A DNA stretch of 64,000 nucleotides, from the IMG/VR virus record IMGVR_UViG_3300018065_000012; one strand, written 5' to 3'. Below are positions 136 through 59,508 of the stretch, piece by piece. Source of the DNA: a virus (lineage: Duplodnaviria > Heunggongvirae > Uroviricota > Caudoviricetes). The position numbers were made by a program, and so were the translations under genes. Each line of letters starts with the position of its first letter. Positions within the stretch are counted from its first letter, which is position 1. The notes under the pieces were generated by a model, which was not told where the DNA came from, did no database searches, and saw only the letters and a program-made list of their open reading frames with translations.

Positions 136-444
136 ATGGATGATAAAGAGATAGCTCAGGAGCTTTTGAGAACTGCTCAATTACTTATTAGCGGTATCCC
201 TTCTGCCGTTGCTAAAAAAAATCTTGCCAAGGCATATGCTTTGAAGATTGAGTCAGCAAAGAGTAAAGCGCCGATGAGACATCAGCAAAGGTTTCACGAC
301 AGATTTCAGAAATTATACGATAAGTTGTCTTCTAAGCATCCAGACGTAGACATGAATTCTGCTGGGTTTTGGGGATCACTTGAAAGGCATGCGAAGAAGT
401 GGTGGGACAGCAGGGGGATGAAAGGGCCATCTGTAGATTGGTAA
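136..444 (+). CDS. small protein, N-terminal ELLK-AK helix family (MDDKEIAQELLRTAQLLIS)
   Basis: ORF 94..444 trimmed to internal ATG preceded by gggaaa SD-like; N-terminal family motif. Confidence 0.55.
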   Translation: MDDKEIAQELLRTAQLLISGIPSAVAKKNLAKAYALKIESAKSKAPMRHQQRFHDRFQKLYDKLSSKHPDVDMNSAGFWGSLERHAKKWWDSRGMKGPSVDW

Positions 445-755: not shown

Positions 756-1214
756 ATGGAAAATACAAAAATCGCTGGTGAATTATTGAAGTTGGCTGGT
801 CAATTACTTGGGCCGGGAAAGCCGGACGGGACTGGGCCTGTTGGATTGGGTCGTAGGCGCAGGCGGCGAGAGCAGGAATGCGACGAAGACGGTTTTTACG
901 AGCCTATGAGCAATGAAGACGAATGTGAGGAGGCTGTTGCTCAGGAGATTTTGAAGGCTTCAAAGTTAGTAAACGCTACTGACGACAAAACAAAGGCTAA
1001 GATTGCGTTAAGGGCATTATCGAGGGCAACGACGCACATGGATAAGTTGGTTGATGAGTTGCATTATTCTCATCAAGAGTTTCCAGATTTAGGAACAAAG
1101 GGTTCAAGATTGAAAGCAAGACTAAAAAAGATTATGGAGGCTGCAAACAAGGTTCAGACGTTGAGTGCGATGTCTTACAGTGATTTGGAGTCATATTTGA
1201 AGGCGGTGAAGTAA
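756..1214 (+). CDS. small protein, ELLK-AK family (MENTKIAGELLKLAGQLLGPG)
   Basis: ATG at 756 after ggcaggggaag SD; family motif then Gly/Pro/Arg-rich linker. Confidence 0.65.
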   Translation: MENTKIAGELLKLAGQLLGPGKPDGTGPVGLGRRRRRREQECDEDGFYEPMSNEDECEEAVAQEILKASKLVNATDDKTKAKIALRALSRATTHMDKLVDELHYSHQEFPDLGTKGSRLKARLKKIMEAANKVQTLSAMSYSDLESYLKAVK

Positions 1215-1549
1215 TGGAAAACAAAAAAATAGCATCTGAGCTTTTGAAGTTGGCTAAGAGTTTGGTTGGGGTGCGCATAAACAAAAGCAGCATCAAAAAG
1301 AAATTGATGGCCAACGTAGTCAACAAGTTTACGGTAGTAGCTCCAGACGACAAAGAATTTGAATTTTCGACATCTGGGAGTTCAGCGGAAGGAATCAACG
1401 GTTATTTATTCCGCGATAAGACGCCTTGGGTAGAATGGGATTGTTACGACGATGGCGTAAAGAAGGCTTTGGGATTCAGAACAATAAGGATGATTTGGTC
1501 TGTGGCTAAGAACGGCGTATTGAAGCCTTTTGATATTACGTTCAAATAA
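1214..1549 (+). CDS. small protein, ELLK-AK family (MENKKIASELLKLAKSLVG)
   Basis: Family motif; 5' 57 nt ~90% identical to 1561..1617. Confidence 0.7.
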   Translation: MENKKIASELLKLAKSLVGVRINKSSIKKKLMANVVNKFTVVAPDDKEFEFSTSGSSAEGINGYLFRDKTPWVEWDCYDDGVKKALGFRTIRMIWSVAKNGVLKPFDITFK

Positions 1550-1560
1550 GGAAGAGTTCG

Positions 1561-1788
1561 ATGGAAAACGCAAAAATAGCATCTGAGCTTTTGAAGTTAG
1601 CAAAGAGTTTGGTTGGTCAGAAGGACTTGGATGTTCGCAAAGTGAAAGCTATTCGCAAGAAAGTGATAGAGGCTCGGAATGCCATATCGAACTTGAAGGG
1701 TGAGATTTCAAAGTCAGAAATAAACAAGTTGGATTCAGTGATGAAGCAGTTGGACAAGGCTGCTGAAGGTTTGTATTATTTCATATAG
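1561..1788 (+). CDS. small protein, ELLK-AK family (MENAKIASELLKLAKSLVG)
   Basis: Family motif; aggaag SD. Confidence 0.7.
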   Translation: MENAKIASELLKLAKSLVGQKDLDVRKVKAIRKKVIEARNAISNLKGEISKSEINKLDSVMKQLDKAAEGLYYFI

Positions 1789-1798
1789 GATTCTTGAA

Positions 1799-2020
1799 AT
1801 GAATGGAGTCGCTCTTGAACTTTTGAAAGTTGCTAAATTGGTAAAGGCTGGGGCGATTACTGACAAGGCAGAGCGGTTTGTAATGTCTGCTGATCACAGT
1901 TTTTCTTTAGCATTGGAAGGCATAGCAGAAGTCGCTACAAAGGCAAAGAAGCGTTCGATTGCCAATGCGATAACAAAGGCGGCGAAAGACGTACAGCGAT
2001 TGGAAGCGAAGGGGGAGTAA
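1799..2020 (+). CDS. small protein, ELLK-AK family (MNGVALELLKVAKLVKAG)
   Basis: Family motif variant. Confidence 0.6.
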   Translation: MNGVALELLKVAKLVKAGAITDKAERFVMSADHSFSLALEGIAEVATKAKKRSIANAITKAAKDVQRLEAKGE

Positions 2021-3364: not shown

Positions 3365-3601
3365 ATGGACAACAAAAAGGTTGCTCAAGAGTTGTTGAAG
3401 ATTGCAAAGGTTTTGAACGGCGCGGCAAGCGTGACGATGATTAACGCTTTGAAACGTTCGCTTGACAATTTGAAGAAGGTACAAAACATCGTAAAAAAAG
3501 ACCCAAAGCGTTATTGGGGAGCTTTGGAAGGACGTTTTGAAGAAATCGAGAAGAATACCAGAGAACTCTTGAAGTATTCTGTAGCGGGAACGAAGAAATG
3601 A
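3365..3601 (+). CDS. small protein, ELLK-AK family (MDNKKVAQELLKIAKVLNG)
   Basis: ATG 3365 with aagga SD 7 nt upstream; ORF table start 3359 is TTG. Confidence 0.65.
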   Translation: MDNKKVAQELLKIAKVLNGAASVTMINALKRSLDNLKKVQNIVKKDPKRYWGALEGRFEEIEKNTRELLKYSVAGTKK

Positions 3602-4677
3602 ATATAGTCACTGAGCTTAAAGTATTGCTTCAAAAACACAAAGCTGATAATTGGAAAAAGCTTTTGTTGGATTCCATTACTGAAGCAAAACAGAAAGCAA
3701 AGTTGGAAGGTTTGAGGGGAGCGGATAAGTTTCCTGTTGGTCTTGAAGGCAAAAATGGTTACTATGCCTATTTGGAAAAACTGGTAAAGTGGATTCCAAG
3801 GGAGAATTACGACGAGGAAGTGCTTTACCATTTGTGCGAATTTTATTGGCTGTTGAACCAGCCACCGGGAAAGAAGTTACAGAAGAGCAAAAGCTTCAAC
3901 AAGTGGATGCGTGATTTTGCAAATCAATGGGGCAGTTTTTTGAACACGGACGAATCTGCAAAAGACTTGCAAACCTTTGTTGATGATCCTGCTTTCAGGG
4001 CTGGCGATTACATGCCCAATCCGAGCGGTTGGAGAACGTTCAATCAATTTTTCGCAAGGGAAATCAAGCCGGGTTTGAGGCCGGTGGCAGGGATGTTTGA
4101 TGACAACATTGTATGTTCGTCTGCTGATTCGACATTCGTGCGGAAGTTCCCGATAGGCGAGGACAACGAAGTCGTCATAAAACTCACGCACAAATACAAA
4201 ATACTGGATTTGCTGGAAGGTAGTCCATATCAGGAGCGCTTCAAGGGTGGGATGTTCTATCATGCATTTTTGGGGCCGAATGATTATCACAGGTTTCGCG
4301 CTCCAGTACGTGGTACGGTTTTGGAGTGTCGCGCAATACAACAGAACGTTTATCTGCAAGTGAAAATCCAAGACGGCAAGTTTTCAGCTCCTGACGGGGC
4401 TGGATACGAGTTCACTCAAACGCGTGGTTTGATTGTATTCGACTCTCCAATTGGATTGGTAGCAGTATTGCCAATCGGAATGGCGCAGGTAAGCAGCGTC
4501 AATATGACGGCAGTGGTCGGGAGCTATCTTAATAAGGGTGAAGAGTTTGGTTACTTTATGTTTGGGGGTTCAGATATCATCATGTTGTTTGAAGAACAAA
4601 GCAACGTAGTGATTTCAGCGGCTCCGGGCGTCCACTACAATTGTGGAATGGCCATTGGCGAAACGGTGAGTGAATAG
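3598..4677 (+). CDS. phosphatidylserine decarboxylase-like (pyruvoyl-dependent) domain protein with a ~150-aa N-terminal extension carrying a weak family-like helix (MNIVTELKVLLQK)
   Basis: FLGPNDYHRFRAPVRGTV matches PSD GPxDYHRxH motif; FGGSDIIMLF resembles the LGST self-cleavage site. Confidence 0.5.
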   Translation: MNIVTELKVLLQKHKADNWKKLLLDSITEAKQKAKLEGLRGADKFPVGLEGKNGYYAYLEKLVKWIPRENYDEEVLYHLCEFYWLLNQPPGKKLQKSKSFNKWMRDFANQWGSFLNTDESAKDLQTFVDDPAFRAGDYMPNPSGWRTFNQFFAREIKPGLRPVAGMFDDNIVCSSADSTFVRKFPIGEDNEVVIKLTHKYKILDLLEGSPYQERFKGGMFYHAFLGPNDYHRFRAPVRGTVLECRAIQQNVYLQVKIQDGKFSAPDGAGYEFTQTRGLIVFDSPIGLVAVLPIGMAQVSSVNMTAVVGSYLNKGEEFGYFMFGGSDIIMLFEEQSNVVISAAPGVHYNCGMAIGETVSE

Positions 4678-5116: not shown

Positions 5117-5461
5117 ATGGAAAACAAAAAAGTAGCGGCTGAATTATTAAAGGTAGCGAGTCTTTTGTCGGCTGTGGACGTTGAGAAGATTCGTAAAGAC
5201 GCAATGAAGAATTATCAAAACGCTTTACAAAATGCGGTGAGGGCGATAAACAAATACGACCTTCATCGTACAGGGCTTGAGCTTGAATTAGCAAAGCGGT
5301 ATTTCAGAAAGGGCGGTATGGTTTTTGATATTCCAGCGCAAGAGACGTTGCGTCTGGTAGAGAAGGCAATGGCGTCTTTGAAAAAAGCAAGAGGCTTCAA
5401 AAGCAAGTTAGACGCTGAAATAAGCAATACGCGAGATTCTACACAACGAGCAATGCTGTAA
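5117..5461 (+). CDS. small protein, ELLK-AK family (MENKKVAAELLKVASLLSA)
   Basis: Internal ATG of ORF 5006..5461 preceded by ggggaagagagct; family motif. Confidence 0.6.
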   Translation: MENKKVAAELLKVASLLSAVDVEKIRKDAMKNYQNALQNAVRAINKYDLHRTGLELELAKRYFRKGGMVFDIPAQETLRLVEKAMASLKKARGFKSKLDAEISNTRDSTQRAML

Positions 5462-5572
5462 ATTCCTTTAAGGAGATTATGAGGTGGGACGTCAAACTGA
5501 AGCAGGAACGCTGGTTCGTTATGCGCGACAGATTATGGCCTTGGATGAGGAAATGACAGAGCACGAAAGAAG
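5458..5572 (+). repeat. dispersed direct repeat, copy 1 (partner 6859..6972; second segment 5880..5953 pairs with 6974..7047)
   Basis: ~90% identity including stop codon, SD and first 30 codons. Confidence 0.7.
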
Positions 5573-5927
5573 AGTGTTTGCCAAACAACTGTTAGTAGTG
5601 GCAAAACATCTTCAATGGAAGGCTTTACATAAAGCCGGAATAGATTTGAGCGGCGTAGACAAGAAAGCAATGAAGGCAATGGATGACGAATTGGACGTAG
5701 CGTTCAAAAGGGCTGAAGCCCGGAAAGAATTGGTAAATCAGATTCACGACGGGTTAAGTTTATTAGGCGACCTTGCGGAGAATCGTGGAGAAAAGAAATT
5801 AGCCTCAACGGTAAAACATAGTTGGAATCAACTTGAAAAGTTGGGAAAAGGGATACGTAGTGAGTTTGATAGGATTAAGCGGGAACAGTTGAGCGAAGAA
5901 ATCAAAGGCAAAAGGACAAAACAATGA
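5484..5927 (+). CDS. hypothetical protein; variant motif FAKQLLVVAKHL at residue ~32; full-length paralog of remnant 6884..7020
   Basis: GTG start with aaggag SD 7 nt upstream; ends ...EEIKGKRTKQ. Confidence 0.6.
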   Translation: MGRQTEAGTLVRYARQIMALDEEMTEHERRVFAKQLLVVAKHLQWKALHKAGIDLSGVDKKAMKAMDDELDVAFKRAEARKELVNQIHDGLSLLGDLAENRGEKKLASTVKHSWNQLEKLGKGIRSEFDRIKREQLSEEIKGKRTKQ

Positions 5928-6448
5928 GAAACAAAAAGTTAGCGGTTGAATTGGTAAAGGTAGCTAAGTTGTTGCTCGCAGCGGAACTTTCTGACGTAGC
6001 TTACGCTTTGGGAAAAGAATACGCTTATCGCTCAAAGCCTTCCAACAAAGAATATGCCGCGTTTGAAGCAACTCATACAAAGAAGCAAAGCAAGGCGTTG
6101 GATGATGCTGTTGGGCGTTTGGAACGGAAGGGAATCAAGGTCAAGAGTTTGAGTATTGAAGCGAAGAAAGTAAGGGATATTGAAAACCCCGTAGTGATAA
6201 TTTATTTGCCTGATTTGAAAAAAGAAATACCTTTGGAACTGCCAAACAAATTGGAGAAGGGGACGAAGTTTAGAGCAAGGGGTGGAACGAATATTGAAGT
6301 GAAGGGTGTTTGGATTAGCATTTTTCATGCGCGTCCAGAAAAATCATCCCCAAGAATTAAGTACAATTATAAAACGCCAGATGGAAAGTCGGGGACGGAA
6401 GAAAACACGTTGGTGAATTTCATTCGGTTGATCAAGCAAGGAGTTTGA
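5924..6448 (+). CDS. small protein, ELLK-AK family (MRNKKLAVELVKVAKLLLAA); C-terminal GTKF..GG..NTL.NF domain shared with 482..754
   Basis: Family motif; paralog of 7018..7437 at N-terminus. Confidence 0.7.
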   Translation: MRNKKLAVELVKVAKLLLAAELSDVAYALGKEYAYRSKPSNKEYAAFEATHTKKQSKALDDAVGRLERKGIKVKSLSIEAKKVRDIENPVVIIYLPDLKKEIPLELPNKLEKGTKFRARGGTNIEVKGVWISIFHARPEKSSPRIKYNYKTPDGKSGTEENTLVNFIRLIKQGV

Positions 6449-6883: not shown

Positions 6884-7020
6884 ATGGCACATCAAATTGA
6901 AGCAGGAACGCTGGTTCGTTATGCTCGGCAGATTATGGCATTGGATGAGGAAATGACCGAGCATGAAAGAAGGCGGGAACAGTTGAGTGATGAAATCAAA
7001 GGCAAGAGGACAAAACAATG
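6884..7020 (+). CDS. truncated paralog (45 aa) of 5484..5927 produced by ~306-nt in-frame internal deletion (MAHQIEAGTLVRYARQIMALDEEMTEHERR|REQLSDEIKGKRTKQ)
   Basis: DNA 6859..6972 and 6974..7047 repeat 5458..5572 and 5880..5953; reading frame preserved. Confidence 0.5.
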
Positions 7021-7437
7021 AGAAACAAAAAGTTAGCGGTTGAATTGATCAAGCTTGCAAGAGAACTTGTCGCAGAGGAAGTCGTTGATGATATGATGGG
7101 CAAGGTGGCTGACTTCTTGCATGAAAATCCAAAACCCTCAGATGACGATTTCCACGAATGGGCAGAAAAGGCAGGCGTGGATAAGCATGAAGCTGAAGCA
7201 GCGGCTTACAGGTTGGCAACCTTATTTGTTGAGTTTTGGAAAGACGGTCTTGCAAACAAGGAAGGCTTCAAAGAAGAAGACGCCGACCCTGAAGAATTGA
7301 AAATGGGCATTGAAATTGAGTACGAACATACGCCCAACCCAAAAGTATCAAAGCGTATTGCTTTGGACCATCTTGCAGAAATTTCTGATTATTATACGCG
7401 CCTTAAGAAAATGGAAGAGGAAGCAGGTGTAGAATGA
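7018..7437 (+). CDS. small protein, ELLK-AK family (MRNKKLAVELIKLARELVAEE)
   Basis: Family motif; 5' DNA near-identical to 5924 start. Confidence 0.7.
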   Translation: MRNKKLAVELIKLARELVAEEVVDDMMGKVADFLHENPKPSDDDFHEWAEKAGVDKHEAEAAAYRLATLFVEFWKDGLANKEGFKEEDADPEELKMGIEIEYEHTPNPKVSKRIALDHLAEISDYYTRLKKMEEEAGVE

Positions 7438-7997
7438 AAAAACTCGTGAGAGAACTTTTGAAGATTGCCGAGGTTATCCGTTTTACAAAGTGGAACAAGG
7501 ACGGGAGTATCGAACGAAAAGAAATTTGGGACGAACAAGCGGCAGCAAAAGAAATAGCAAAGGTCTCAAAATTGATTTCTGGCGCGTCGCTTGGACCCGG
7601 TTTCAAAAACACCTATCAAGGCTATGAATTTGTAAGAACCATACGCGCCAATAGAATGGCCAAGGGTAAGATATATGGAATGTCTTACAAGGGCGGCAAC
7701 CAAGGTCAAGACATAATTCGTTTGCTTGGCTATTCCGATGTGACTCCGAAATACGGAGATGGCGGAGTCGTCTTCAATACTTTGAAAGACGTCAAAAAGA
7801 AATATGGCGTGAAGAATATGAGAGAGCTTGAGAAAATCGACGATAAGTTGAACTTGCCATACGGTCACGGAATTTACATGTGGGTTGAAAGTTTGCCAAG
7901 CGGTTCCAAAGGTCCGTGGTATTATCCTTTCAATGGCCGTTGGTCCCGTGGAAGTGGCGCAGAAAAAATTACCTTTTGGGAAGTGAAAAAAGCATAA
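7434..7997 (+). CDS. small protein, ELLK-AK family (MKKLVRELLKIAEVIRF)
   Basis: Family motif; ATGA overlap with upstream gene. Confidence 0.65.
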   Translation: MKKLVRELLKIAEVIRFTKWNKDGSIERKEIWDEQAAAKEIAKVSKLISGASLGPGFKNTYQGYEFVRTIRANRMAKGKIYGMSYKGGNQGQDIIRLLGYSDVTPKYGDGGVVFNTLKDVKKKYGVKNMRELEKIDDKLNLPYGHGIYMWVESLPSGSKGPWYYPFNGRWSRGSGAEKITFWEVKKA

Positions 7998-8019: not shown

Positions 8020-8319
8020 ATGAACGACAAACAACTTGCGCAACGACTGTTAAAATTGGCTGGTTCGCTTTTGGGTCCGGGGATTCCCGATGGAACCGGG
8101 CCGATGGGTGGAACGCCCGAATGTCCAATGAGTAACGCCGTCGAGGAGCCTGTTGAAGCTGATCCCGTTGAGCAGATTCTTGAAAACCAAGAAGAAATCA
8201 TGGAAGAGCTGGATGAAATTGAAGATGTCTTGGACGTTCACCCACCAGAACATCATATGGCGGCTGAGCTGGTAAAGATTGCAAAGGAACTTATCAAAGA
8301 GGGAAAGGACGATGCCTGA
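8020..8319 (+). CDS. ELLK-AK family protein with motif at both ends (N-terminal MNDKQLAQRLLKLAGSLLGPG; C-terminal MAAELVKIAKELIKEGKDDA)
   Basis: Motif at both termini; GPG.PDGTGP linker as in 756..1214. Confidence 0.65.
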   Translation: MNDKQLAQRLLKLAGSLLGPGIPDGTGPMGGTPECPMSNAVEEPVEADPVEQILENQEEIMEELDEIEDVLDVHPPEHHMAAELVKIAKELIKEGKDDA

Positions 8320-8671
8320 ATTTCTCAATCCGTTTCAAGTGAAAGACCTTGGTCGCCCAATGAATTTGCGCGAATTACAACGGGCGCTTCGGCAATCTAT
8401 TGCGGCTGAAGAAGAAGCGGTTCACTTGTATGAAGCTTATGCGGATGCTTCTGAATTGCAATATGTTAAAAAGGTTTTTCAAGACATTGCTGACGAAGAA
8501 AAAGTTCATGTGGGAGAATTTCAAGAATTGTTGAATCGTTTTGATTCAGGGGAACGTGAATTTCTTGAAGAGGGCGCGGACGAAGTTCAAGAGATGTTAT
8601 CTGAAGACGTCATTGCTTCAAGGGTTGCTAAAGCATTCATTGCCGGGCGTGCCGAAGATTTAGAGATTTAG
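8312..8671 (+). CDS. small acidic protein with two E-x-x-H motifs (EEEAVHLYEAY ... DEEKVHVGEF), ferritin/rubrerythrin-like four-helix candidate
   Basis: Paired ExxH motifs ~35 aa apart; ATG overlaps upstream stop. Confidence 0.4.
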   Translation: MPEFLNPFQVKDLGRPMNLRELQRALRQSIAAEEEAVHLYEAYADASELQYVKKVFQDIADEEKVHVGEFQELLNRFDSGEREFLEEGADEVQEMLSEDVIASRVAKAFIAGRAEDLEI

Positions 8672-8717: not shown

Positions 8718-9095
8718 ATGAAAATAGCTTCTGAATTGCTAAAGATCGCAAAGCTATTGACGGCTAAATACAAAGTCGAAAAATGGTACTTCATGCGTAT
8801 GCCGCGAGGGAGGATGCGGCAGAAGCAAGTACGTTGGACGTTGTCGGTAGACCTCGATTGGTCTGACGAAGCGCACGGAAAACATCCTTCACAAGATTAT
8901 AAAGAAAAAGAGATGCTTGAAGAAACATACAGGTCAGATAAGTCAACAATAAGAACGTTTGCAAAAATTGGCAGGAACATCATAACGATTCCCGGTGATT
9001 TTGAATTGCGTATGAAATTTGAGATCAAGGTTCCAATGGATAAAACAAACGAAGCAACAAGAAAGCTTGAAGCATTAGGATACAAACGACTATGA
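8718..9095 (+). CDS. small protein, ELLK-AK family (MKIASELLKIAKLLTAK)
   Basis: ATG 8718 with ggag SD; family motif. Confidence 0.65.
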   Translation: MKIASELLKIAKLLTAKYKVEKWYFMRMPRGRMRQKQVRWTLSVDLDWSDEAHGKHPSQDYKEKEMLEETYRSDKSTIRTFAKIGRNIITIPGDFELRMKFEIKVPMDKTNEATRKLEALGYKRL

Positions 9096-10539: not shown

Positions 10540-10650
10540 TGGCGTGGATAGCTTTGACGTTTGTTGTCTTATTTGTTCTTACTGCGACGTCTTTGAACAG
10601 AAAGATAAAGAGAGCAATTGACGATCTTGAAGATTTTTGAGGGGAAAGCA

Positions 10651-11418
10651 ATGGAGCGGATTGCGAAAGAGCTTTTGAAGATTGCGAAACAAATACAGTC
10701 CGGCGCAACAGGTTTTTCCAAATTCGGAAAAGGCACTGACGCCAAAAGAGTGTTTCGCGATTTGCAAGAAGCGGCAAGAAGGGAATATGGCGAGGACCGT
10801 TACAGCGGGACGATCGGCGCTAAGGATAGTTTCAAACTTGTAGCTGAGCCAATGCCCTTGAAGGGCGCACAAGAAGTAGCAAGAAAGATGGGCGACAAGG
10901 CTGATAAATGGGGACCAGCGTTTGGCGTTCCTGTTGTGGGGGAAAGCAAAGGCAGATTGAAGGACGTTAAGAAAGCCGTCAAATCAAAAAGCAGTAGGGA
11001 GGCAGTTGAAGCATTGAATCAAATGCTAAACGAAAGATACAAAGGGTTTGTTTGGGAATGGGAAACCAAACCTAAAGTGGAATTGTTGAAAGGTTCTGCG
11101 ATTACCTTCAAGACGCAGAAAGGGGCAAAGCCAGCGGTTGTTTACAAAACCTTAACGTACAAAGAATATCCTACGTTGAAAGAAGCAGTTGACGCAACAG
11201 AAGCTCATATCAAGACGGCTATTCAAGAAAATTGGCGTTTGCAAAAAGAATATCCAATCACCGCCGAAGTATCAAACGCTACAAGAGTTGCGGCCAAAGT
11301 TACATTTGATTTCAGAAGCAAAGAGGGAAACAAGTATCAAGTAAGTGGTAAAATCAAGGTATCGAAACCAAGCAAGAAAATAATTGGGTATTTTTTCTTT
11401 GGCGAAGCGCCAACGTAA
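10651..11418 (+). CDS. ELLK-AK family protein, 255 aa (MERIAKELLKIAKQIQSG)
   Basis: Internal ATG 10651 preceded by gaggggaaagca. Confidence 0.65.
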   Translation: MERIAKELLKIAKQIQSGATGFSKFGKGTDAKRVFRDLQEAARREYGEDRYSGTIGAKDSFKLVAEPMPLKGAQEVARKMGDKADKWGPAFGVPVVGESKGRLKDVKKAVKSKSSREAVEALNQMLNERYKGFVWEWETKPKVELLKGSAITFKTQKGAKPAVVYKTLTYKEYPTLKEAVDATEAHIKTAIQENWRLQKEYPITAEVSNATRVAAKVTFDFRSKEGNKYQVSGKIKVSKPSKKIIGYFFFGEAPT

Positions 11419-13832: not shown

Positions 13833-14390
13833 ATGCCATTCAAAAGCGTTGAGGAAGCAATAAAGAAACATCCCGGTTTGAAGAAGTATAGTCAGAAGGC
13901 GCAACGGGGTTGGCTCAAGTCGATCAACAGTTGTTTTGCTGGCGGGGGAGACGATGGTAAATGTTTTCCAATTGCTTGGAGCGTAGCAAACAAAGCGGAT
14001 AGCAAGAAAGCCATGGACGAAAAAGATTTTGATGAATGGGTCGTTGACGTGGAGTTCAGAGCAGGGCGGTTTGTAGTTTTCAAAGCAGACACGTTTGCAA
14101 GAGCAGACGAGGTGTACGAAGTTTATCCAAAAGGAAGCAAGAAGAAAATAGCAAGTATAATTTTCAATAACGGAAGAATCAAAATCATGGCAGATGCTTG
14201 GACGTTTACGAGGGAAAACCCTTTGGTCAAAGTTGATAGGGAGATACGAGATCCAAAGCCGATAGATGCGGCTAAGTATTTAGTCAAGCTTTACAAGCTT
14301 TGGGAAATGTACTATACGAAGAGAAAAATTTCAACAGAGTTAATCAAGATAGCAAAGATTCTTATTGGAGAGAACGGCAGTGGAGATTAA
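13833..14390 (+). CDS. hypothetical 185-aa protein carrying the family motif at its C-terminus (ISTELIKIAKILIGENGSGD)
   Basis: C-terminal occurrence of motif. Confidence 0.6.
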   Translation: MPFKSVEEAIKKHPGLKKYSQKAQRGWLKSINSCFAGGGDDGKCFPIAWSVANKADSKKAMDEKDFDEWVVDVEFRAGRFVVFKADTFARADEVYEVYPKGSKKKIASIIFNNGRIKIMADAWTFTRENPLVKVDREIRDPKPIDAAKYLVKLYKLWEMYYTKRKISTELIKIAKILIGENGSGD

Positions 14391-14559: not shown

Positions 14560-14942
14560 AACAGATTGCAAAACAGCTTTTGAAAATTGCCGCTATACTC
14601 GTCAATCCCTTAAATGGAATGAGAAAACAAAAAGCAACAAAAGTTGTAAACAAATTGATGGCAGACGCATCAAAAGGGCTTTTCAGCGATTCATATTGGA
14701 GAGGCGTAAAACAAGTTTGGGAAGCGTTAGACAGAGCAGGAATCCCTTATACGATTATGAGCAACAAGTATACACAGGATAAAGTAACAGGCAACCCCAA
14801 TGCGAAAGAATGGAAGTTTGAAATAGAGTTTGCAAACGAGCGCGGACGCCTTCATAAGCTTTATGGGCGGTTGGTTGCAAGTGGCGCTGGTCCAATTGAT
14901 GATCCTCTTGAACGCTATGATATCACGGTGTATGCTTCATGA
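14556..14942 (+). CDS. small protein, ELLK-AK family (MKQIAKQLLKIAAILVNP)
   Basis: Internal ATG of ORF 14526..14942. Confidence 0.6.
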   Translation: MKQIAKQLLKIAAILVNPLNGMRKQKATKVVNKLMADASKGLFSDSYWRGVKQVWEALDRAGIPYTIMSNKYTQDKVTGNPNAKEWKFEIEFANERGRLHKLYGRLVASGAGPIDDPLERYDITVYAS

Positions 14943-16441
14943 ATGTTTCATCTGAACTTCAAAAAATAGCAACGCTTCTCGTAACTGCGACTCTCGCAGA
15001 AAAAGAATTTGAACGCTTTCTCAAAGTGTTTTTGAAAGGTACGCCTTTTGCGCACAAGGCGTATGCCGTAGGCGGTTACGTCCGTGATGAATTGTTAGGT
15101 TTGGAATCAAAAGACCTTGACGTTGTTGTAGAGATGAAGGGTGGCGCTGAAAAACTTACTAAGTTGATTAAGAAGGAATTGGGCAAAGCAGTTTCTACTC
15201 CGAGGCAATTGGGCGCTGGTTATCCTATTTGGCAGATTGCTTTCAAAGAAGATATTTCTTATGAGGGTAAGACGTATAAAACCAAAGGCGCGGTTCTTGA
15301 ATTTGCCGATACGATGACTGAGAGTTTTCCTGACCCAGAAAGCAGACAACGACAAACTGAATATGGAACGCTTGAGCAGGACGTTAAACGCCGAGATTTT
15401 ACCGTCAACATGTTGATGAAAGATTTGACAAACGGTGAAATCAAAGACTTGACCGGAGTGAGTAAGAATGATTTGAAGAAAGGAATCTTGCGCGGTCATC
15501 CCGGCGTTTCGCTTGATAAGATTTTCATGAACGACCCGTTGCGAATGATACGTTTGATCCGGTTCCAAACGAAATACGGATGGGACATTCCAATGGATGT
15601 GTTACGCATTGTCAAACGCAATGCAAAACGAATTCAAATTGTGTCGCCTGAACGCATTATGGGAGAACTTGAAAAGGTAATGAAATTGGGCAAACTGAAC
15701 AAAGCAATTCGATTAATGAAGATAACAGGTTTACTCAAATATGTACTTCCAGAAGTGGATGAGCTTACAAAAGTCAAGCAGTCGCCGAAGCAACATGCAG
15801 AAGGAAACGTATTCAAACATACTATGATGGTATTGAAAAACGCAAAGCCAACGGTAGAGGCTCAGATGGCGGCGTTGTTGCATGACGTTGGAAAGGCAAA
15901 GACGCAGCAGATATTTGGAAACGGGATTTCATTCCATGGCCATGAAAAAGTGTCTGGTGAAATCGCGGAAGCAATTTTGCGTAGGCTGAAGTTTGACAGT
16001 CGTACGATCAATACTGTTCGCAAATTGGTTGAAAATCATATGCGGCCACATCGAATTGATGATATGATAAAATCAAACAAGGGCGATTCAGCGCGTGTGC
16101 AGAAAGTATTGCGTCGCTTTGTCCGCAAGATTGGTGATGAATCTATTGATGCGTTGATTGACTTGGCAGAGGCGGATGCGATCGGAAAGTTGCCGCCGCA
16201 GAATTATGCTCCCAATCTGAGGCGCATGATTGATGATATCAGAAAGTCTCCGTTACCCGTTTCAAAAAAGCCAGTGTTGGACGGCAAAGAAATTATGCAA
16301 ATACTGAACGTGAAGCCGGGACCGCTTGTTGGGGACGTGTCGCGGTTTCTGATTGAGTTGGAAGAGGACTATGCCGCAAAAGGAAAAGCGTTGAAGAAGG
16401 ACGAAGCAAAGAAACAGGTGCTTGAAAGATATAGTCGTTGA
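14939..16441 (+). CDS. cca: CCA-adding tRNA nucleotidyltransferase with HD domain, fused to a ~28-aa N-terminal family helix (MNVSSELQKIATLLVTATLAEKEFERFLK)
   Basis: AYAVGGYVRDELLG...DLDVVV head-domain motifs of Pol-beta NTase/CCA enzymes; HD region downstream. Confidence 0.75.
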   Translation: MNVSSELQKIATLLVTATLAEKEFERFLKVFLKGTPFAHKAYAVGGYVRDELLGLESKDLDVVVEMKGGAEKLTKLIKKELGKAVSTPRQLGAGYPIWQIAFKEDISYEGKTYKTKGAVLEFADTMTESFPDPESRQRQTEYGTLEQDVKRRDFTVNMLMKDLTNGEIKDLTGVSKNDLKKGILRGHPGVSLDKIFMNDPLRMIRLIRFQTKYGWDIPMDVLRIVKRNAKRIQIVSPERIMGELEKVMKLGKLNKAIRLMKITGLLKYVLPEVDELTKVKQSPKQHAEGNVFKHTMMVLKNAKPTVEAQMAALLHDVGKAKTQQIFGNGISFHGHEKVSGEIAEAILRRLKFDSRTINTVRKLVENHMRPHRIDDMIKSNKGDSARVQKVLRRFVRKIGDESIDALIDLAEADAIGKLPPQNYAPNLRRMIDDIRKSPLPVSKKPVLDGKEIMQILNVKPGPLVGDVSRFLIELEEDYAAKGKALKKDEAKKQVLERYSR

Positions 16442-27507: not shown

Positions 27508-27530
27508 CCATATAATAATTTTATATTTGC
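27508..27530 (+). promoter_or_regulatory. AT-rich element CCATATAATAATTTTATATTT (late-motif family member)
   Basis: Shares TTTTATATTT core with 39071, 49135, 55766, 59586, 62758. Confidence 0.4.
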
Positions 27531-43650: not shown

Positions 43651-43685
43651 TCTGCATGAAAATATAGAATCTCTTGGAGACAATT

Positions 43686-45638
43686 ATGGCAAAGAAAAAA
43701 GCATCGACAAAAAAGAAAGCAACGCGTAAACGGACGGCGAGTAAAACTAAAGACGCTGTGAGATTTGGTTTGCCTTCTCCCGGTCTTAGTAAAGGCCCAG
43801 TGGACAAGGCAAAAGCCAGAGCCGTTGCGAGAATGGAAAAGAAAGCCCGTGTTGCGAAAATTGCAACAAGCGCAATGGCTGGACGTGGACGCGAAGCCGG
43901 AATGATGATGGATACGACATCCATGTCAGGCGGCATTTGGGGCAGCTTGTCGTTGGATGCCTATCATACGAGTTACGCAAGCGGCAACACAATGTATGGT
44001 GGTGGAGTACGAGATATCCCAACGTATTTCATCATGATGAATCAGCAGAACGGCGGTGTACTGTATTGGCCCGTAAGCTTGCGCGAGAAGTATGAGTGGT
44101 ACAGATATTTTGCAAGAACAGATGCATACGTTGGCCGTGCTTTGGAATTGCTCTCCGACTTGCCGATGAGCAAGCTTTCTTTGACCGTTCCAAAGCTCAA
44201 AGACCCAAATTTGAGAGAAGAGATTCATTCTTTTTATACCTATATGTGCGAACGCATTAACTTGTTCCAAAGGCTTCAAGAAATCCTTTGGGAATACAAC
44301 ATGATTGGTAATGTGTTTGCGTTTCACGAATGGGATGAAAAACGCGACATGTGGAGCAAGATTGTTTTGCTTCCGCCAGAAGAAATCAATTGTTTCACAT
44401 ATCCATTCAGCGATAATGCGCGTATTGAATATCGTCCTGAAAAGCTAATGGAGATTATCAAGAAGTCCAGAGAAATGCCAGAGGCTCTTGAGGGCAACGA
44501 ATTCTTAAAACAGATTATGGAGCACATTCCTGAAGATGTAGTTGATATGGTCACCAATCAAGATTGTATCGTAATGGATAGCGACCCTTATGCTGGCGGA
44601 GAGGTCGGGTCCTTCACTAATCATTTTGCGCGACGCAAAAGTCCTTATATGGACTTGGGAGCATCGGTGCTGGAGCGTGTATTGGTTCCAATGCTCCAGA
44701 AAGAGAATTACCGCTATACGCAACTTGCTTTGGCAACGCGCAACATGACGCCGAAAAATAAGATCAGTGCGCCCAATTTGAATAATGACGAGATCAATGA
44801 ACTGCGCGAACAAATTGACTTGTCTTACATGGACCCCGATTATAGCGTTGTAACTAACTATGATTGGGAGTGGGAAATGATGGGGGCAGAATCGCGGCTG
44901 CTTGATTTGTCTGGCGAATATGAAAACATCGAGAATCAAGTGTTTGCTGGGCTGGGCGTAACGCGAGAACTTTTGACGGGCGAGGGAACTTACAGCGGCA
45001 ACCGGATTACAGTTGAAATTTTGAATACGGTTTTCATGCTTGTCCGCGAAACGCTTCAAGAGTACGTCGAGAAGCAATTGTTCAAACCTGTTGCCGATAA
45101 GAAGGGATGGTATTCAGAAGACAAAAATGGAATTCGGAAATATTGGTATCCGCGTTTGAGTTTCAATCGTCTCAGCATTCGGGACAATCAGGAAGTCTTT
45201 GAGAATCTGTTTCAGTTGTATCAAAAGGGTTCGTTGCCGATTGAGGTATTGTTTGAACTTTACAATTTGGACAGCGATACGATCAATGATCAGATTAAAC
45301 GGGAACTGTTTACCGTTAAAGACCCGACGTTCAATCGGACGATTGAGAACGTTAATGATGAAGTTGGACGTCAGCTTGCTGAGCGTTCTGACATTGTTGA
45401 AAAGGTTGGAAAGTATCTTGGACTCAAAGTTAAACCGCCGCAGGAAGAAGGCGCGGGTGGAATGGGTGGCGAAGCGTTTGGTGAAGAGTTTGGCGCTGGC
45501 GGAGAAGGTTCAGAAGAGGATCAAATCGTCGAAGAGACGGCTGACGCTGTTGCTGAAGAAATGCCAGCAGATTCAACCGAGGAAGAAGTCAAGGAAGTCG
45601 TTAGTGACCTTAGCTTAGCTGCGAGTGAGAAAAAATGA
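43686..45638 (+). CDS. portal protein
   Basis: 650-aa protein directly after terL; basic N-terminus, acidic C-tail. Confidence 0.6.
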   Translation: MAKKKASTKKKATRKRTASKTKDAVRFGLPSPGLSKGPVDKAKARAVARMEKKARVAKIATSAMAGRGREAGMMMDTTSMSGGIWGSLSLDAYHTSYASGNTMYGGGVRDIPTYFIMMNQQNGGVLYWPVSLREKYEWYRYFARTDAYVGRALELLSDLPMSKLSLTVPKLKDPNLREEIHSFYTYMCERINLFQRLQEILWEYNMIGNVFAFHEWDEKRDMWSKIVLLPPEEINCFTYPFSDNARIEYRPEKLMEIIKKSREMPEALEGNEFLKQIMEHIPEDVVDMVTNQDCIVMDSDPYAGGEVGSFTNHFARRKSPYMDLGASVLERVLVPMLQKENYRYTQLALATRNMTPKNKISAPNLNNDEINELREQIDLSYMDPDYSVVTNYDWEWEMMGAESRLLDLSGEYENIENQVFAGLGVTRELLTGEGTYSGNRITVEILNTVFMLVRETLQEYVEKQLFKPVADKKGWYSEDKNGIRKYWYPRLSFNRLSIRDNQEVFENLFQLYQKGSLPIEVLFELYNLDSDTINDQIKRELFTVKDPTFNRTIENVNDEVGRQLAERSDIVEKVGKYLGLKVKPPQEEGAGGMGGEAFGEEFGAGGEGSEEDQIVEETADAVAEEMPADSTEEEVKEVVSDLSLAASEKK

Positions 45639-47941: not shown

Positions 47942-48210
47942 TGGATATGAAAAGGATGGCAGATATGGCAGAAAGAATTGCTCAACCAACGGGTGGAGAA
48001 GATAACCCAGCCTTATCACAGATTGATGAGGCAATTGACAAGATGTTGGTTTCAATCAAAGCGATTGAAGAACAATTGCCCAATGTTGAAACGGCGAGTA
48101 AGGCAGAGGAAGACGCAAAGGCAAAGATCAAGGATTTGTTTGAAACTGCCATCAACCCTTATGTTGCCGATGTTTTGGAAGCGTTAGATGTCTTTGTTGG
48201 GGAAGAATAA
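47938..48210 (+). CDS. hypothetical acidic protein
   Basis: ATGA overlap. Confidence 0.5.
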   Translation: MMDMKRMADMAERIAQPTGGEDNPALSQIDEAIDKMLVSIKAIEEQLPNVETASKAEEDAKAKIKDLFETAINPYVADVLEALDVFVGEE

Positions 48211-50813: not shown

Positions 50814-51011
50814 ATGGCCAATCCATATTTGAATACGCCGCCAACGAAGCTAAAGAAGCTTGTTGAAAAAGAAAAGAATGCCAAGAAAAAGAAACAGATG
50901 CGGGATGCTCTGAACGCTTGGCGTCTTGTCGTTCCCGGTCCGTTTTCAATTGGACGCAGAAAACTTGCGAAAGAACTTTTGTCAATAGCCAACCTGTTGC
51001 TTGGGGAATAA
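50814..51011 (+). CDS. small basic protein ending in the family motif (RRKLAKELLSIANLLLGE)
   Basis: C-terminal motif. Confidence 0.5.
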   Translation: MANPYLNTPPTKLKKLVEKEKNAKKKKQMRDALNAWRLVVPGPFSIGRRKLAKELLSIANLLLGE

Positions 51012-53237: not shown

Positions 53238-53639
53238 ATGAACGAAGAACGACTTGTTCGCAGTTTGATGAGACTTTCAAAGAAGCTATTCCGAGAGAAG
53301 AATCGGGTAGCGGGCATTCTTAAAATTTCTCCAGTATTGATGACCGCTGCTAAGAATTTGAAAAAGGTTTGTGGAAAATATTCAGGGCTTGGAACTGGCG
53401 ATACTTCATCCGATGAGGCCATTGTTGATTACATCGGAAAAGAATTGCCAATAAATAAAGACAATCCATTCAAGCTTCTCGACGATGATTATAAAGGCAA
53501 GTTCACTATTGCGATTGCAACAAAAGATATTATGAAAGCATTGAAGGCAATCAATAATATTTTGGTCAAGGCCGACCTTGAGACAAGAGTTGAAAAACAA
53601 ATTGCCGAAGAAGTTTACGAAGTAGTCCATTGGTCGTAA
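53238..53639 (+). CDS. family-like protein (MNEERLVRSLMRLSKKLFRE)
   Basis: Degenerate motif. Confidence 0.5.
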   Translation: MNEERLVRSLMRLSKKLFREKNRVAGILKISPVLMTAAKNLKKVCGKYSGLGTGDTSSDEAIVDYIGKELPINKDNPFKLLDDDYKGKFTIAIATKDIMKALKAINNILVKADLETRVEKQIAEEVYEVVHWS

Positions 53640-53646
53640 GGGAAAG

Positions 53647-53940
53647 ATGATGAAAAAGCTTGCTGCGGAGTTGATCAGAATTGCCAAGCTTGTTGTTGCC
53701 AATAGTATCTTTGTGATTCATGTTACAGGAGATAAGAAAGAACCTGCGGATGAATACAAGGTAGCACTAAGCGTTCATGACAATCCAAGGCTTGGGTTTC
53801 AAATTCTGAAAAAGGGGATAAAGAAGAATCAAGCAGAAGCTTTTGCAAAGCAGATGAAAACGCCAGAAGAAAGCTTGCTCCGTTTTGAGGAGACAGGTTA
53901 CGGTCACAAACGTAAGTACAAAAAGGTAAATCGGTTTTGA
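53647..53940 (+). CDS. small protein, ELLK-AK family (MMKKLAAELIRIAKLVVANS)
   Basis: Family motif. Confidence 0.6.
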   Translation: MMKKLAAELIRIAKLVVANSIFVIHVTGDKKEPADEYKVALSVHDNPRLGFQILKKGIKKNQAEAFAKQMKTPEESLLRFEETGYGHKRKYKKVNRF

Positions 53941-56649: not shown

Positions 56650-57864
56650 ATGGAAAAAAGGATTCGGCTTACTGATCCACGGCACCCGCGCAATCGCGCT
56701 GCGGCTAAGGCGGAACCTTATCCGGGCATGGTTGGACAACCTGATCGTAAGTTCCAACCAGACGACAAGTACGAAAATTACGTCGAAGTTCCCGGTTGGG
56801 AAACGCAAGAGTTGCCCACGGACATTGACGACAAGCGCGACGAGATTGGTTTTCCGGTAATGAAGAAAGCTACAGTCGCGAAGGTCCGTAGCGCTGCTCA
56901 AAAAGCGGTCCGTGCTGCTATTCTATTCCTTGGCGACAAATCACCGGAAAGCGTTGTTGAAGCGCAAGCCCGTGATTTTATGCGCCTTGGGAACAAAGGG
57001 CTTGATTTGGCTCTGAGTCGTTATCAAGAAACGGCGAAGTTCTATGCTCAGAAGGAAGAGGACGACACCGTTGCGGATGACGATTTCATTGAGAAGAAAA
57101 AGGAAGAGTCAGAAGCAAAGTCTCCAGAAGAAGCAAAAAAGAACATCGAAAACAGCAATATGCCTGAAGCTTTGAAAGAACAGGCGCTCAAGAAGGTTGA
57201 TGAAGAAGGCAAAAAGAAGAAAAAAGCTCTTCAACTGATTGCTGAAGCCAATGCTCTTCTCTCGGAAGATGAAGAGGCTCAGGACGAAGAGGAAGAAGCT
57301 TGCACGAAAAAGTCAGAAGATGAAGAAGTAAAAGAGGAAGCTCAGGACGAAGAGGAAGAAGCTTGCACAAAAAAGTCAGATGATAATCAAGATGAAGAGT
57401 CTGACGAGGACAAAGATATAGGAGCAAAGAAATCAGAGGACGAAGAAGTAAAAGAAGAAGTTCAGGAAGAAGAGACTGAGAAGAAAAAGTCAGATGATGA
57501 TGACGATGATGACGACGATAAAGAAGAAGTGGTTGTGGAAGAAACTGTTGAGGCAAAGAAGAGCGGCGATGCTGAGCTGGACATTGAGATGAGCGCAGCC
57601 GATGAGGGTTTGGAAGAAAGCCCGTCCGAAGACAAGCTGCTTGCTTCGCTTTACGAGGCTCAGGAAGAGGAACCTGAGAAAAAGGAAGAGGCTCAGGAAG
57701 AAGAGAAAGAAGAAGCACAAGATGAAGAAGAGCCAGAGAAGAAAAAGAAGGCTGGAGTCAAAAAGCTTGGCGGTCAGCCCAGAGTTGCTTCTTCTGGAAA
57801 TCCTCTCGATCTTTCGAGTTTGTGGAACAGTGCGCCTGATATCAATGAACTGTGGGATAAGTAA
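56650..57864 (+). CDS. scaffolding protein candidate (acidic, tandem repeats)
   Basis: Position upstream of decoration and MCP; repeats EDEEVKEEAQDEEEEACTKKS. Confidence 0.55.
   Translation: MEKRIRLTDPRHPRNRAAAKAEPYPGMVGQPDRKFQPDDKYENYVEVPGWETQELPTDIDDKRDEIGFPVMKKATVAKVRSAAQKAVRAAILFLGDKSPESVVEAQARDFMRLGNKGLDLALSRYQETAKFYAQKEEDDTVADDDFIEKKKEESEAKSPEEAKKNIENSNMPEALKEQALKKVDEEGKKKKKALQLIAEANALLSEDEEAQDEEEEACTKKSEDEEVKEEAQDEEEEACTKKSDDNQDEESDEDKDIGAKKSEDEEVKEEVQEEETEKKKSDDDDDDDDDKEEVVVEETVEAKKSGDAELDIEMSAADEGLEESPSEDKLLASLYEAQEEEPEKKEEAQEEEKEEAQDEEEPEKKKKAGVKKLGGQPRVASSGNPLDLSSLWNSAPDINELWDK
57277..57392 (+). repeat. tandem ~63-nt coding repeat x2 (plus a degenerate third copy near 57430)
   Basis: gctcaggacgaagaggaagaagcttgcac... 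Confidence 0.6.
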
Positions 57865-58433: not shown

Positions 58434-58644
58434 ACGCATGACGCGGAACACGCTATGTTCCCCAGCGTGTAATAAATCGGGGTTTAGATAAGGGTGTTGC
58501 GAAGTAAGGAGAGATTTGATTGTTCCCAATCGCTCATTCAATGCAGAACAACATCCTTGAGTGGTCTACAAGGCCGCTCAAAAAAGAACGTTGGAAGCTT
58601 ACGGTCAGCGTTGACCACTTCCATTTTGATAAAGGAGAATGAAC

Positions 58645-59508
58645 ATGGCCCAGTTGGACAATCAGACCAAGCAGGAAATCATCAGTCAGTACATCAAGAC
58701 TGCCGCTGGTCGCCAACGCTTGGCCGCGTCCATGATTCAACCCCTCCGCCGTCGTAGGGATTACTCGTCTGTTGGCCGCAAGGCTTTCTATGTCGAGCAA
58801 CTTCCCGATGGTGCGCTTCCTCTTTACGACAAAGATCCAAATATCACGGCCTACGTCGTTGGAGAAGAGGGGGAGAACATTGTCGCAGTCGCCAAGCCAA
58901 AGCGCGTGATGTTCCCGCTGTTCGAGATTGCTTCGAACCCTGAAATCCAGCTGACCGAGATCAAGCAGCGTCGTTTCGATCTGATCGAGCGTTCTCTTGA
59001 CCTCGCGAAAGCGGAAATTCAGGCCGAAGAAGACCGTAAGGTTTTCGCAGTGATGAACGCACTTTCGGCAGACCCCACCAACCCCAACCCCGCTATCCCC
59101 GTCACGGGCAACCTGACGGCCAATGCGCTTGCAGATGCTTTTGCAAATATTGAGCGTACGGATATGCGCGTGGCCAACGTGTTCTTGAATGCTAAGGACT
59201 ACGCTGACCTCCGCAAGTGGGATCGGGACACCTTGGACATCGAAACTCAGGCCGTCTTGCTCAAGACTGGTCTGATGGCGACGGTCTGGGGTGCAAAACT
59301 CATCGTCAGTCGTATCGTGCCGGAAGGCACCGTTTACGTCTGTGGTGAGCCTGAGTTCTTCGGTAGAATCCCCGTCCGTACCGAACTCACCGTGCTGTCC
59401 GCTGATGATCCGAAAAACCGTCTTATTGGTTTCTCGGTGTTCGAGAACATCGGCATTGGTGCGTACAACCCGTACGCATTGCAGGTGCTCACCATCACGC
59501 GTACGTAA
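58645..59508 (+). CDS. major capsid protein candidate
   Basis: aaggag SD 7 nt upstream; GC-rich codon usage; followed by strong terminator. Confidence 0.5.
   Translation: MAQLDNQTKQEIISQYIKTAAGRQRLAASMIQPLRRRRDYSSVGRKAFYVEQLPDGALPLYDKDPNITAYVVGEEGENIVAVAKPKRVMFPLFEIASNPEIQLTEIKQRRFDLIERSLDLAKAEIQAEEDRKVFAVMNALSADPTNPNPAIPVTGNLTANALADAFANIERTDMRVANVFLNAKDYADLRKWDRDTLDIETQAVLLKTGLMATVWGAKLIVSRIVPEGTVYVCGEPEFFGRIPVRTELTVLSADDPKNRLIGFSVFENIGIGAYNPYALQVLTITRT

Follow-up and report, generated by a model that had tools for sequence, protein, structure and literature searches.

In the 64,000-nucleotide stretch of tailed-phage DNA analysed here (the window; IMG/VR record IMGVR_UViG_3300018065_000012), many otherwise unrelated proteins begin with the same peptide of about 19 residues. 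This peptide, which we call the tag, is probably a docking module; it is new and undescribed, and one clade of uncultivated huge phages uses it widely at protein N-termini. Its best-supported function is the loading of cargo into the capsid, to which, on the strength of position and analogy, we give about an even chance of being correct. An earlier note on this DNA had read the conserved start of the genes at 1214-1788 as a capsid-targeting propeptide that is cut off by the prohead protease. The targeting part of this proposal gains circumstantial support from the linkage of the tag to the head module and from the basic character of the cargo, whereas the cleavage part is not supported by the results described below.

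A hidden Markov model (HMM) of the tag, 19 residues long and trained on 18 copies, finds 25 sites in the window with scores of 10.9-33.8 bits, on the plus strand throughout, and the top unrelated match in the window reaches 4.3 bits. Two weaker second copies (7.0 and 6.2 bits) both lie inside open reading frames (ORFs) that are already tagged. A regular expression for the motif gives 21 matches on the plus strand and none on the minus strand, and the back-translated A-x-E-L-L-K-x-A-K matches the DNA ten times, with 0.00 matches expected from 100 shuffles. The whole window is coded on the plus strand, with positive GC skew throughout, and the minus-strand ORFs that overlap 1214-1788 are short and without gene-like signs. 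Most of the sites, twenty, fall in the stretch 1-12.4 kb; a pair follows at 14.3-14.6 kb, and the remaining three are at 50.9-53.7 kb. The array itself starts one gene upstream of the window (L001:8573, MEKIAREILEIANRIAASG).

The consensus in the window is M-(D/E)-N-K-K-[IVL]1-A2-x-E4-L5-L6-K7-[IVL]8-A9-K10-x-L12-x-[ASG]14. Along its core, [IVL] is found in 24 of the 25 copies, Ala in 23, Glu in 23, Leu in 24, L/I/V in all 25 and Lys in 22, such that A2, E4, L5, K7 and A9 are each conserved in at least 22/25 (at least 88%). The information content reaches background only past position 14, and it stays high for ten residues past Glu4, where L5, L6, K7, A9 and L12 are all informative. The motif [IVL]-A-x-E described in the earlier note is real, but its placement at residues 6-9 applies only to members that start with M-x-N-K-K. 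Members beginning with M-K-K carry it at residues 4-7, and some copies are not N-terminal at all, being internal (at 927 and 2901) or C-terminal (at 8251, 14322 and 50955). As the codons vary freely at conserved positions (A2 is encoded by all four Ala codons and L5 by five Leu codons) and the DNA identity among tag copies is mostly 61-80%, selection is on the peptide, and the conservation evidently acts at the protein level.

The tag follows the pattern of an amphipathic helix. Its hydrophobic moment averages about 0.5, its net charge is about +3, and it contains no aromatic residues. Its hydrophobic face is formed by V1-A2-L5-L6-I8-A9-L12, with Ala and Leu at the heptad a/d-like positions 2, 5, 9 and 12, and a single-sequence AlphaFold2 model of 1214-1549 places a helix at residues 2-16, at low confidence (pLDDT, the model's per-residue confidence score, of 47). 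When 22 tagged proteins were compared beyond residue 24, clear similarity was seen in only one of the 231 pairs (482-754 with 5924-6448, E 3e-18), and two further pairs are marginal. Judged by these comparisons, the tagged proteins do not form a family of paralogues as the term is usually meant. Furthermore, Pfam domains begin well downstream of the tag, at residue 77 for DUF5661 (7018-7437) and at residue 41 for the nucleotidyltransferase head domain of a CCA-adding/HD enzyme (14939-16441). With the tag removed, the tagged proteins have a median isoelectric point (pI) of 9.6, with 19/22 above 8, as compared to a median of 6.5 for 40 untagged neighbours (p = 7e-4). The tagged ORFs and associated genes of the array region are the following, with tag HMM scores in bits.

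136..444, plus strand: tagged ORF of 102 residues (MDDKEIAQELLRTAQLLISG), 26.2 bits
482..754, plus strand: tagged ORF of 90 residues, C-terminal domain common with 5924-6448 (tail E 3e-18), 32.6 bits
756..1214, plus strand: tagged ORF of 152 residues with an N-terminal tag and a weak second tag at 927-977, 25.6 and 7.0 bits
810-851, plus strand: GPG-PDGTGP linker of ORF 756..1214
1214..1549, plus strand: tagged ORF of 111 residues (MENKKIASELLKLAKSLVG...), tag at residues 1-19, 30.8 bits
1561..1788, plus strand: tagged ORF of 75 residues (MENAKIASELLKLAKSLVG...), 28.4 bits; repeat family D1
1799..2020, plus strand: tagged ORF of 73 residues, 23.7 bits
2020..2451, plus strand: tagged ORF of 143 residues, 33.0 bits
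2462..2803, plus strand: tagged ORF of 113 residues, 29.5 bits
2817..3353, plus strand: ORF of 178 residues, its N-terminal tag degenerate (6.2 bits), its internal tag at 2901-2951 strong (28.2 bits)
3365..3601, plus strand: tagged ORF of 78 residues, 33.8 bits
3598..4677, plus strand: phosphatidylserine-decarboxylase (PSD)-like enzyme of 359 residues, variant N-terminus MNIVTELKVLLQKH; PF02666, E 5.6e-40
5117..5461, plus strand: tagged ORF of 114 residues, 20.9 bits
5924..6448, plus strand: tagged ORF of 174 residues, 23.0 bits
6450..6872, plus strand: tagged ORF of 140 residues, 27.9 bits
6885..7058, plus strand: segmental duplicate with an internal deletion; repeat families D4 and D5
7018..7437, plus strand: tagged ORF of 139 residues with a C-terminal DUF5661, 22.7 bits; PF18905, E 5.2e-15
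7434..7997, plus strand: tagged ORF of 187 residues with a weak second copy near 7545, 24.6 bits
8020..8319, plus strand: acidic ORF of 99 residues, tagged at the N-terminus (25.1 bits) and at the C-terminus (8251-8304, 12.4 bits), with a PDGTGP linker
8312..8671, plus strand: untagged ferritin-like (Rubrerythrin / EncFtn-like) gene; PF02915, E 1.7e-10; PF22277, E 2.2e-4
8718..9095, plus strand: tagged ORF of 125 residues, 29.8 bits
10648..11418, plus strand: tagged ORF of 256 residues, 27.0 bits
11943..12356, plus strand: tagged ORF of 137 residues with a GTG start, 27.1 bits
13833..14390, plus strand: ORF of 185 residues with a C-terminal tag at 14322-14369, 13.4 bits
14556..14942, plus strand: tagged ORF of 128 residues in which Gln replaces Glu4, 10.9 bits
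14939..16441, plus strand: CCA-adding / poly(A)-polymerase-type nucleotidyltransferase with an HD domain, 500 residues; PF01743, PF12627, PF01966

The ORFs 1214-1549 and 1561-1788 are adjacent on the plus strand and have Shine-Dalgarno-like sequences, and the doubly tagged ORF 8020-8319 overlaps at its end with the ferritin-like gene. Two enzymes inside the array, the PSD-like one (3598-4677) and the CCA-adding/HD one (14939-16441), have degenerate N-termini of the form MN(I/V)xxEL..., which in the former was recognised by eye only. The CCA-adding enzyme itself starts with MNVSSELQKIATLLV, and its orthologue L022:11398-12897 (62% identity) begins with NMIAKELIKIARLLL, a clear tag of 17 bits. 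A subfamily of carriers continues directly from the tag into L-L-G-P-G-x-P-D-G-T-G-P-x-G, followed by an acidic or Arg-rich stretch and often by a second tag (window 810-851 and 8074-8112; P0126, P0127, P0145, P0146, P0155). This PDGTGP motif presumably resembles DUF5320, a match that Pfam did not report. Other contigs repeatedly encode a further type of cargo, in which the tag leads into F-P-T-x-E-A-M-x-x-Y-L-K-x-H-P-x-A-D-K-S-K-H (P0131, P0138, P0154, P0190, P0198; L006, L012, L024).

The array also bears traces of recombination. Positions 6885-7058 are a copy of 5485-5572 joined to 5879-5964, with 91-92% identity, and this duplicate terminates within the tag of the next gene; the cargo after the two copies differs. 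Relative to 5485-5964, the copy has an internal deletion of about 306 nt, and it leaves a remnant ORF of 45 residues (6884-7021). Furthermore, the tags of 1214 and 1561 share 93% DNA identity, and the remainder of the two genes is unrelated. Since one duplication ends inside a tag and two nearly identical tags precede unrelated sequences, the tag therefore also acts, to judge from these two cases, as a recombination junction for the exchange of cargo.

The same N-terminal tag opens many ORFs in several IMG/VR contigs. A search of 1.84 billion cluster representatives with the tag profile gave 79 protein clusters at E<=1e-3; the best match begins within the first eight residues in 61 of them, some carry two or three copies, and the ten whose proteins were looked up are all metagenomic. 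No tag family is present in Pfam or PHROGs, whether for the window members or for 74 tag-bearing proteins from elsewhere, and the strings ELLKIAK, ELLKLAK, ELLKVAK and ELLRIAK are absent from the searched literature. In an index of 5.8 billion proteins, 1214-1549 and 10648-11418 match only themselves, and a tblastn search of 50,697 phage records with the 111-residue ORF and the consensus tag gave no match. Bacterial and archaeal genomes (596 Gb) contain at least 120 matches to the DNA pattern. Because those among the matches listed are single, at chance level and not at N-termini, a cellular origin of the tag, or its membership of a known cellular family, was dropped.

The window belongs to a phage-G-like jumbo phage. 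Its source contig is at least 338 kb long, and its major capsid protein (MCP) is 70% identical to that of LR745208, an uncultured 485-kb phage, 49% to that of the Tunturiibacter jumbo phage Tunturi_5 and 38% to gp27 of Bacillus phage G. The head modules of these three phages are without the tag, and the stretch of LR745208 that reaches 20 kb to each side of the MCP gene contains no ELLKIAK tag; the tag is therefore confined to a subclade, and no cultivated carrier was found. Tag-free relatives such as LR745208 also lack certain head genes, namely those for a Cys-rich protein of 115 residues, for an acidic protein of 90 residues (47938-48210) and for the acidic protein of 404 residues (56650-57864). 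Many head-module proteins of phage G show a different recurrent start, M-(K/S)-R-L-(I/K)-K-K (MKRLIKKAS, LKRLIKKSN, MSKKISRLKKTAL), in gp5, gp9, gp10, gp12, gp13, gp17, gp20 and gp38 (L031, NC_023719 3289-44131), which by analogy may be an address tag in a cultivated phage. Of these, gp20 directly follows the protease gp19, the same position as that of the degenerate-tag ORF 53238-53639 in the window. A small head-module ORF of LR745208 (L163:18719-19123) begins with MTTLRSKLIRLAHENPALRPQLLPLL, another helix-like N-terminus.

What connects the tag with head assembly is in part its position relative to the following genes.

41303-43117, plus strand: TerL
43674..45638, plus strand: portal protein; phrog_16240, E 3e-26
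50814..51011, plus strand: head-module ORF of 65 residues, tagged C-terminally (50955-51008), 13.1 bits
51428..51868, plus strand: tagged ORF of 146 residues, 0.4 kb upstream of the protease, 13.6 bits
52263..53228, plus strand: prohead (head maturation) protease of the assemblin fold, ending in a basic helix that is conserved
53238..53639, plus strand: ORF of 133 residues that immediately follows the protease; degenerate tag (MNEERLVRSLMRLSKKLF), seen by eye
53647..53940, plus strand: tagged ORF of 97 residues, 0.4 kb downstream of the protease, 22.4 bits
55908..56615, plus strand: candidate scaffolding protein of 235 residues, pI 4.1, named from its position and its coiled-coil-like acidic sequence
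56650..57864, plus strand: very acidic head-module protein of 404 residues, pI 4.4, conserved in relatives
58639..59508, plus strand: MCP of the HK97 type, no delta domain; phrog_2522, E 4.3e-54
60139-62151, plus strand: NrdD

All three tags outside the array region (beyond 16.5 kb) are found within 1.3 kb of the protease (in 50814-51011, 51428-51868 and 53647-53940), for which a rough, post hoc estimate of the chance probability is about 2e-4, i.e., (2.9/47.5)^3. The linkage recurs in relatives. When loci were retrieved by protease homology alone, without use of the tag, tags scoring 8 bits or more were present in the head module (the portal-to-capsid block) of six of the eight (L033, L035, L157, L158, L159, L160), and L161 has weaker copies there. 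In L033, four to five tagged ORFs lie directly upstream of the protease, and a 56-residue ORF with a C-terminal tag, analogous to 50814-51011, lies directly downstream; in L159, the ORF equivalent in position to 53238-53639 carries a 12.6-bit tag. Two genes of the array also occur in head modules of other phages: 10648-11418 is orthologous to the tagged L158:6326-7120, which lies between portal and protease (34% identity, E 2e-37), and the tagged DUF5661 gene sits in the head module of L161. In the Vibrio phage VPs20, gp14 is a fusion of DUF5661 to a DUF2213/phrog_530 head-maturation protease and adjoins the capsid gene, and prohead protease-ferritin/Dps fusions are among the structural neighbours of the window's protease in BFVD (ranks 17 and 34).

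Taken together, the likeness to the capsid-targeting sequence (CTS) of T4, the linkage to the head module and the combination of basic cargo with an acidic scaffold lend circumstantial support to capsid targeting. We envisage a portable amphipathic docking helix, attached to many unrelated and mostly basic proteins, that would recruit its carriers to the assembling procapsid, either to an acidic scaffold core or to the inner surface of the shell. The recruited proteins would be packaged and would later leave the head with the DNA, following the logic of the T4 CTS, and removal of the tag by cleavage after Glu4 would not be needed. The binding partner, the packaging and the ejection are all inferred here by analogy.

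The protease itself looked HK97/S78-like to the reader of the earlier note; its nearest relatives by structure in BFVD are phage G gp19, phiRSL1, PaBG and COG3740/HK97-type enzymes. None of the 50 best BFVD matches is a phiKZ-like protease; phage G, Pupper, phiRSL1, PaBG and COG3740-type enzymes are found instead. At its C-terminus (53115-53228), an invariant R-V-A-D in a low-confidence linker is followed by a conserved basic helix, GMxVLRVARxELxRRRRE...ERVA, and the two may represent a site of autoprocessing and a tail that targets the capsid. Mimicry of this helix (VLRVARxELxRRRRE...ERVA) by the tag was considered and abandoned, the profile-profile (hhalign) probability being only 0.4%. The scaffold candidate has no family match, and its C-terminus gives no match to the tag HMM.

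The cleavage proposed in the earlier note would have the tag act as a propeptide of the T4 or phiKZ style, which targets its carrier to the prohead and is cut by the protease after [IVL]-A-x-E, leaving mature N-termini that start with LLK.... This is in keeping with the presence of [IVL]-A-x-E in 23/25 window tags, with the assemblin-fold prohead protease encoded among tagged genes, and with the specificity of SPN3US gp245 for A-X-E sites, at which Val is the favoured P4 residue (PMC10052503), a preference to which V-A-x-E conforms. We nevertheless regard it as improbable. Among 24 tags of the relatives, whose loci were fetched without the tag, Glu4 is kept in 16 and replaced by Arg or Lys in 8, and A2 is present in 21, L5 in 23, A9 in 24 and [IVL]-A-x-E in 16; the window, too, has copies with Arg or Gln at this position (LAQRLL, IAKQLL). 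The best-conserved residues A2, L5, A9 and L12 flank the cut on both sides as one helix, and conservation persists to position 14, ten residues past the cut. Furthermore, P3 is Ala, as opposed to the L/I of T4 gp21 sites (PMC9026906), Glu specificity is not established for the kin of the protease (phage G gp19, phiRSL1, PaBG, COG3740/HK97-type), and tags are also found at C-termini and inside proteins. Because Glu4 varies, the helix crosses the cut, P3 is Ala and some tags are not N-terminal, Glu4 is more likely part of the recognition surface or a stabiliser of the helix than a P1 residue. The proteins may nevertheless be cut at some other site.

Other destinations or roles have to be weighed against the capsid. 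The most serious of them, which we consider unlikely but worth keeping in mind, is that the helix serves for docking to, or oligomerisation on, a hub outside the capsid, be it a cytoplasmic phage assembly or factory, a host protein, or the tagged proteins themselves in mutual hetero-oligomers. Packing between helices typically uses a heptad Ala/Leu core such as that of the tag, the main array resembles an early or accessory region, the CCA-adding and PSD-like enzymes bear variant tags, and some proteins are doubly tagged, as cross-linking adaptors would be. Such a hub, however, leaves unexplained why tags lie beside the prohead protease in this phage and its relatives, and why DUF5661 is found within a head-maturation protease elsewhere. 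A cationic amphipathic helix that anchors its carriers at the inner membrane would account for the hydrophobic moment of about 0.5 and the charge of +3, and for a homologue of a lipid enzyme (PSD-like) within the array, but we think this quite improbable: A2, E4, K7 and A9 are strongly conserved across divergent phages, whereas membrane anchors usually retain amphipathicity only, the tag is without aromatic residues, and the PSD-like protein bears just a degenerate copy. It is hardly credible that the peptide is a by-product of a role at the level of DNA or RNA, either as the boundary of a recombination cassette or as an expression element at the gene start. The segmental duplication that terminates in a tag and the 93% DNA identity of the 1214 and 1561 tags in otherwise unrelated genes would be expected from such a role, and the A-rich codons 2-5 (N-K-K) could aid translation initiation. 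Yet most copies have only 61-80% DNA identity, with synonymous changes preserving the amino acids, the peptide is kept across differing codon usage, with K exchanged for R in GC-richer relatives, and copies are also found at C-termini and inside proteins.

Loading into the capsid has its own difficulties. The capsid as the destination is drawn wholly from position or analogy, and some 40 kb separate the head genes from the main array, which is surrounded by small ORFs of early-region look. Its carriers include normally cytoplasmic enzymes (CCA-adding and PSD-like), both with degenerate tags. The tag profile is unlike the C-terminal helix of the protease or the scaffold, neither of which is thereby marked out as the receptor, and the tag-free head modules of LR745208, Tunturi_5 and phage G imply that a head can assemble without the tag. 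Finally, the packaging of at least 25 cargo species would be unusual. A more far-reaching version of capsid loading, which we hold to be possible at somewhat less than an even chance, is that dozens of unrelated proteins enter the capsid by virtue of one clade-wide label, to be injected together with the DNA, and that recombination in the tag swaps cargo between the array and the head module. The cargo would then comprise the small basic proteins, the DUF5661 protein, the CCA-adding tRNA nucleotidyltransferase and possibly the ferritin-like protein and lipid enzymes, and the system would be an independent, much larger counterpart of the CTS and internal proteins of T4.

If capsid loading is correct, the likely packaged and ejected proteome of many uncultivated huge phages becomes readable from sequence, and the cargo strategy of the T-even phages, in which diverse proteins carry a common address peptide, would have arisen independently at much larger scale. 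Each genome would offer some 25 candidate effectors of the first minute of infection, which may include anti-defence proteins and a tRNA-repair enzyme, and the tag, being short and transferable, would allow foreign proteins to be loaded into capsids of the HK97 type. Should the destination not be the capsid, the tag would still be an undescribed and highly conserved sorting or docking module that is absent from Pfam, PHROGs and the searched literature.

Some further features of the genome deserve mention. In relatives, inteins or homing endonucleases are found in the prohead protease (762 residues; PF05203/PF14890) and in TerL (LAGLIDADG), at L035:9947-12235, P0034, L158:626-3706 and L161:1-905. 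The module W-(K/V)-K-T-x-T-K-N-K-E-G-L-P-G-W-K-D-x-x-T-G-x-V-R-Y-Q is common to 46067-46195 and 49543-49635, which belong to a K/E-rich protein of 768 residues after the portal and to a Zn-ribbon head-module protein of 421 residues; in the former, a weak tag-like helix (KAIADEYIRIAKSFVAG) lies ahead of the module. An AT-rich, promoter-like motif, (C/A)ATAATTTTTTTATATT, is found in intergenic positions at 27519, 39080, 49146, 55769, 59596 and 62768 as well as at L001:7840, that is, upstream of the head genes 49174 and 55908, of the gene two before the array, of nrdD and of others. It had been considered as a clue to the timing of the array and the head genes, which was dropped because nrdD and other genes also have it upstream.

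Among known systems, the encapsulins dock unrelated cargo, including ferritin-like proteins, inside an HK97-fold shell by means of cargo peptides that are typically C-terminal, extended and rich in Gly, Ser and Leu, and they do so without DNA or a protease. The tag resembles these in being a short terminal peptide, and a ferritin/EncFtn-like gene is present in the array, but it is mostly N-terminal (61/79 clusters), helical and amphipathic, with a different consensus. Membrane-targeting helices conserve residue identity only weakly and often have aromatic anchors, whereas the tag keeps its identities and has no aromatics. With the fusions of cargo domains to protease or scaffold (DUF2213-DUF5661 in VPs20, protease-ferritin/Dps), the tag array has the same domain types in common, and in both cases the accessory domain would reach the interior of the procapsid. 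In the VPs20 type, however, the domain is covalently fused to the protease, whereas here a separate docking tag would serve many cargos by one mechanism.

The phiKZ/SPN3US group likewise consists of jumbo phages that package many proteins, and the tag contains the (S/A/G)-x-E motif, with a Val at P4 that matches the logo of SPN3US gp245 (PMC10052503), which is a match in sequence only. The propeptides of that group are mostly 111-254 residues long rather than one common short tag, their P1' residue is preferentially Ser where the tag has Leu, the window's protease falls in with the phage G, phiRSL1, PaBG and COG3740 enzymes, with none of the gp175/gp245 type among its 50 best BFVD matches, and the Glu of the tag is not invariant. 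The internal proteins of T4 are another close parallel; they are diverse and basic, have only the CTS in common and are directed by it into the scaffolding core (PMC3012670, PMC9026906). As in IPI, IPII and IPIII of the T-even phages, a short N-terminal peptide is the sole element common to small basic proteins of diverse sequence, these are encoded at a variable locus that is separate from the head genes, and an assemblin-fold prohead protease is combined with an acidic scaffold core. The CTS of T4, however, has ten residues (MKTYQEFIAE) and ends in an L/I-x-E site (PMC9026906), whereas the tag has about 19 and a different sequence with only A and E in common, a P3 Ala in 23/25 copies and a hydrophobic residue at P4, and it is conserved well past the Glu, beyond the proposed propeptide. 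The lineage is phage-G-like, with an HK97-type MCP without a delta domain, and unrelated to T4, and it carries at least 25 tagged proteins per genome as compared to about three in T4.

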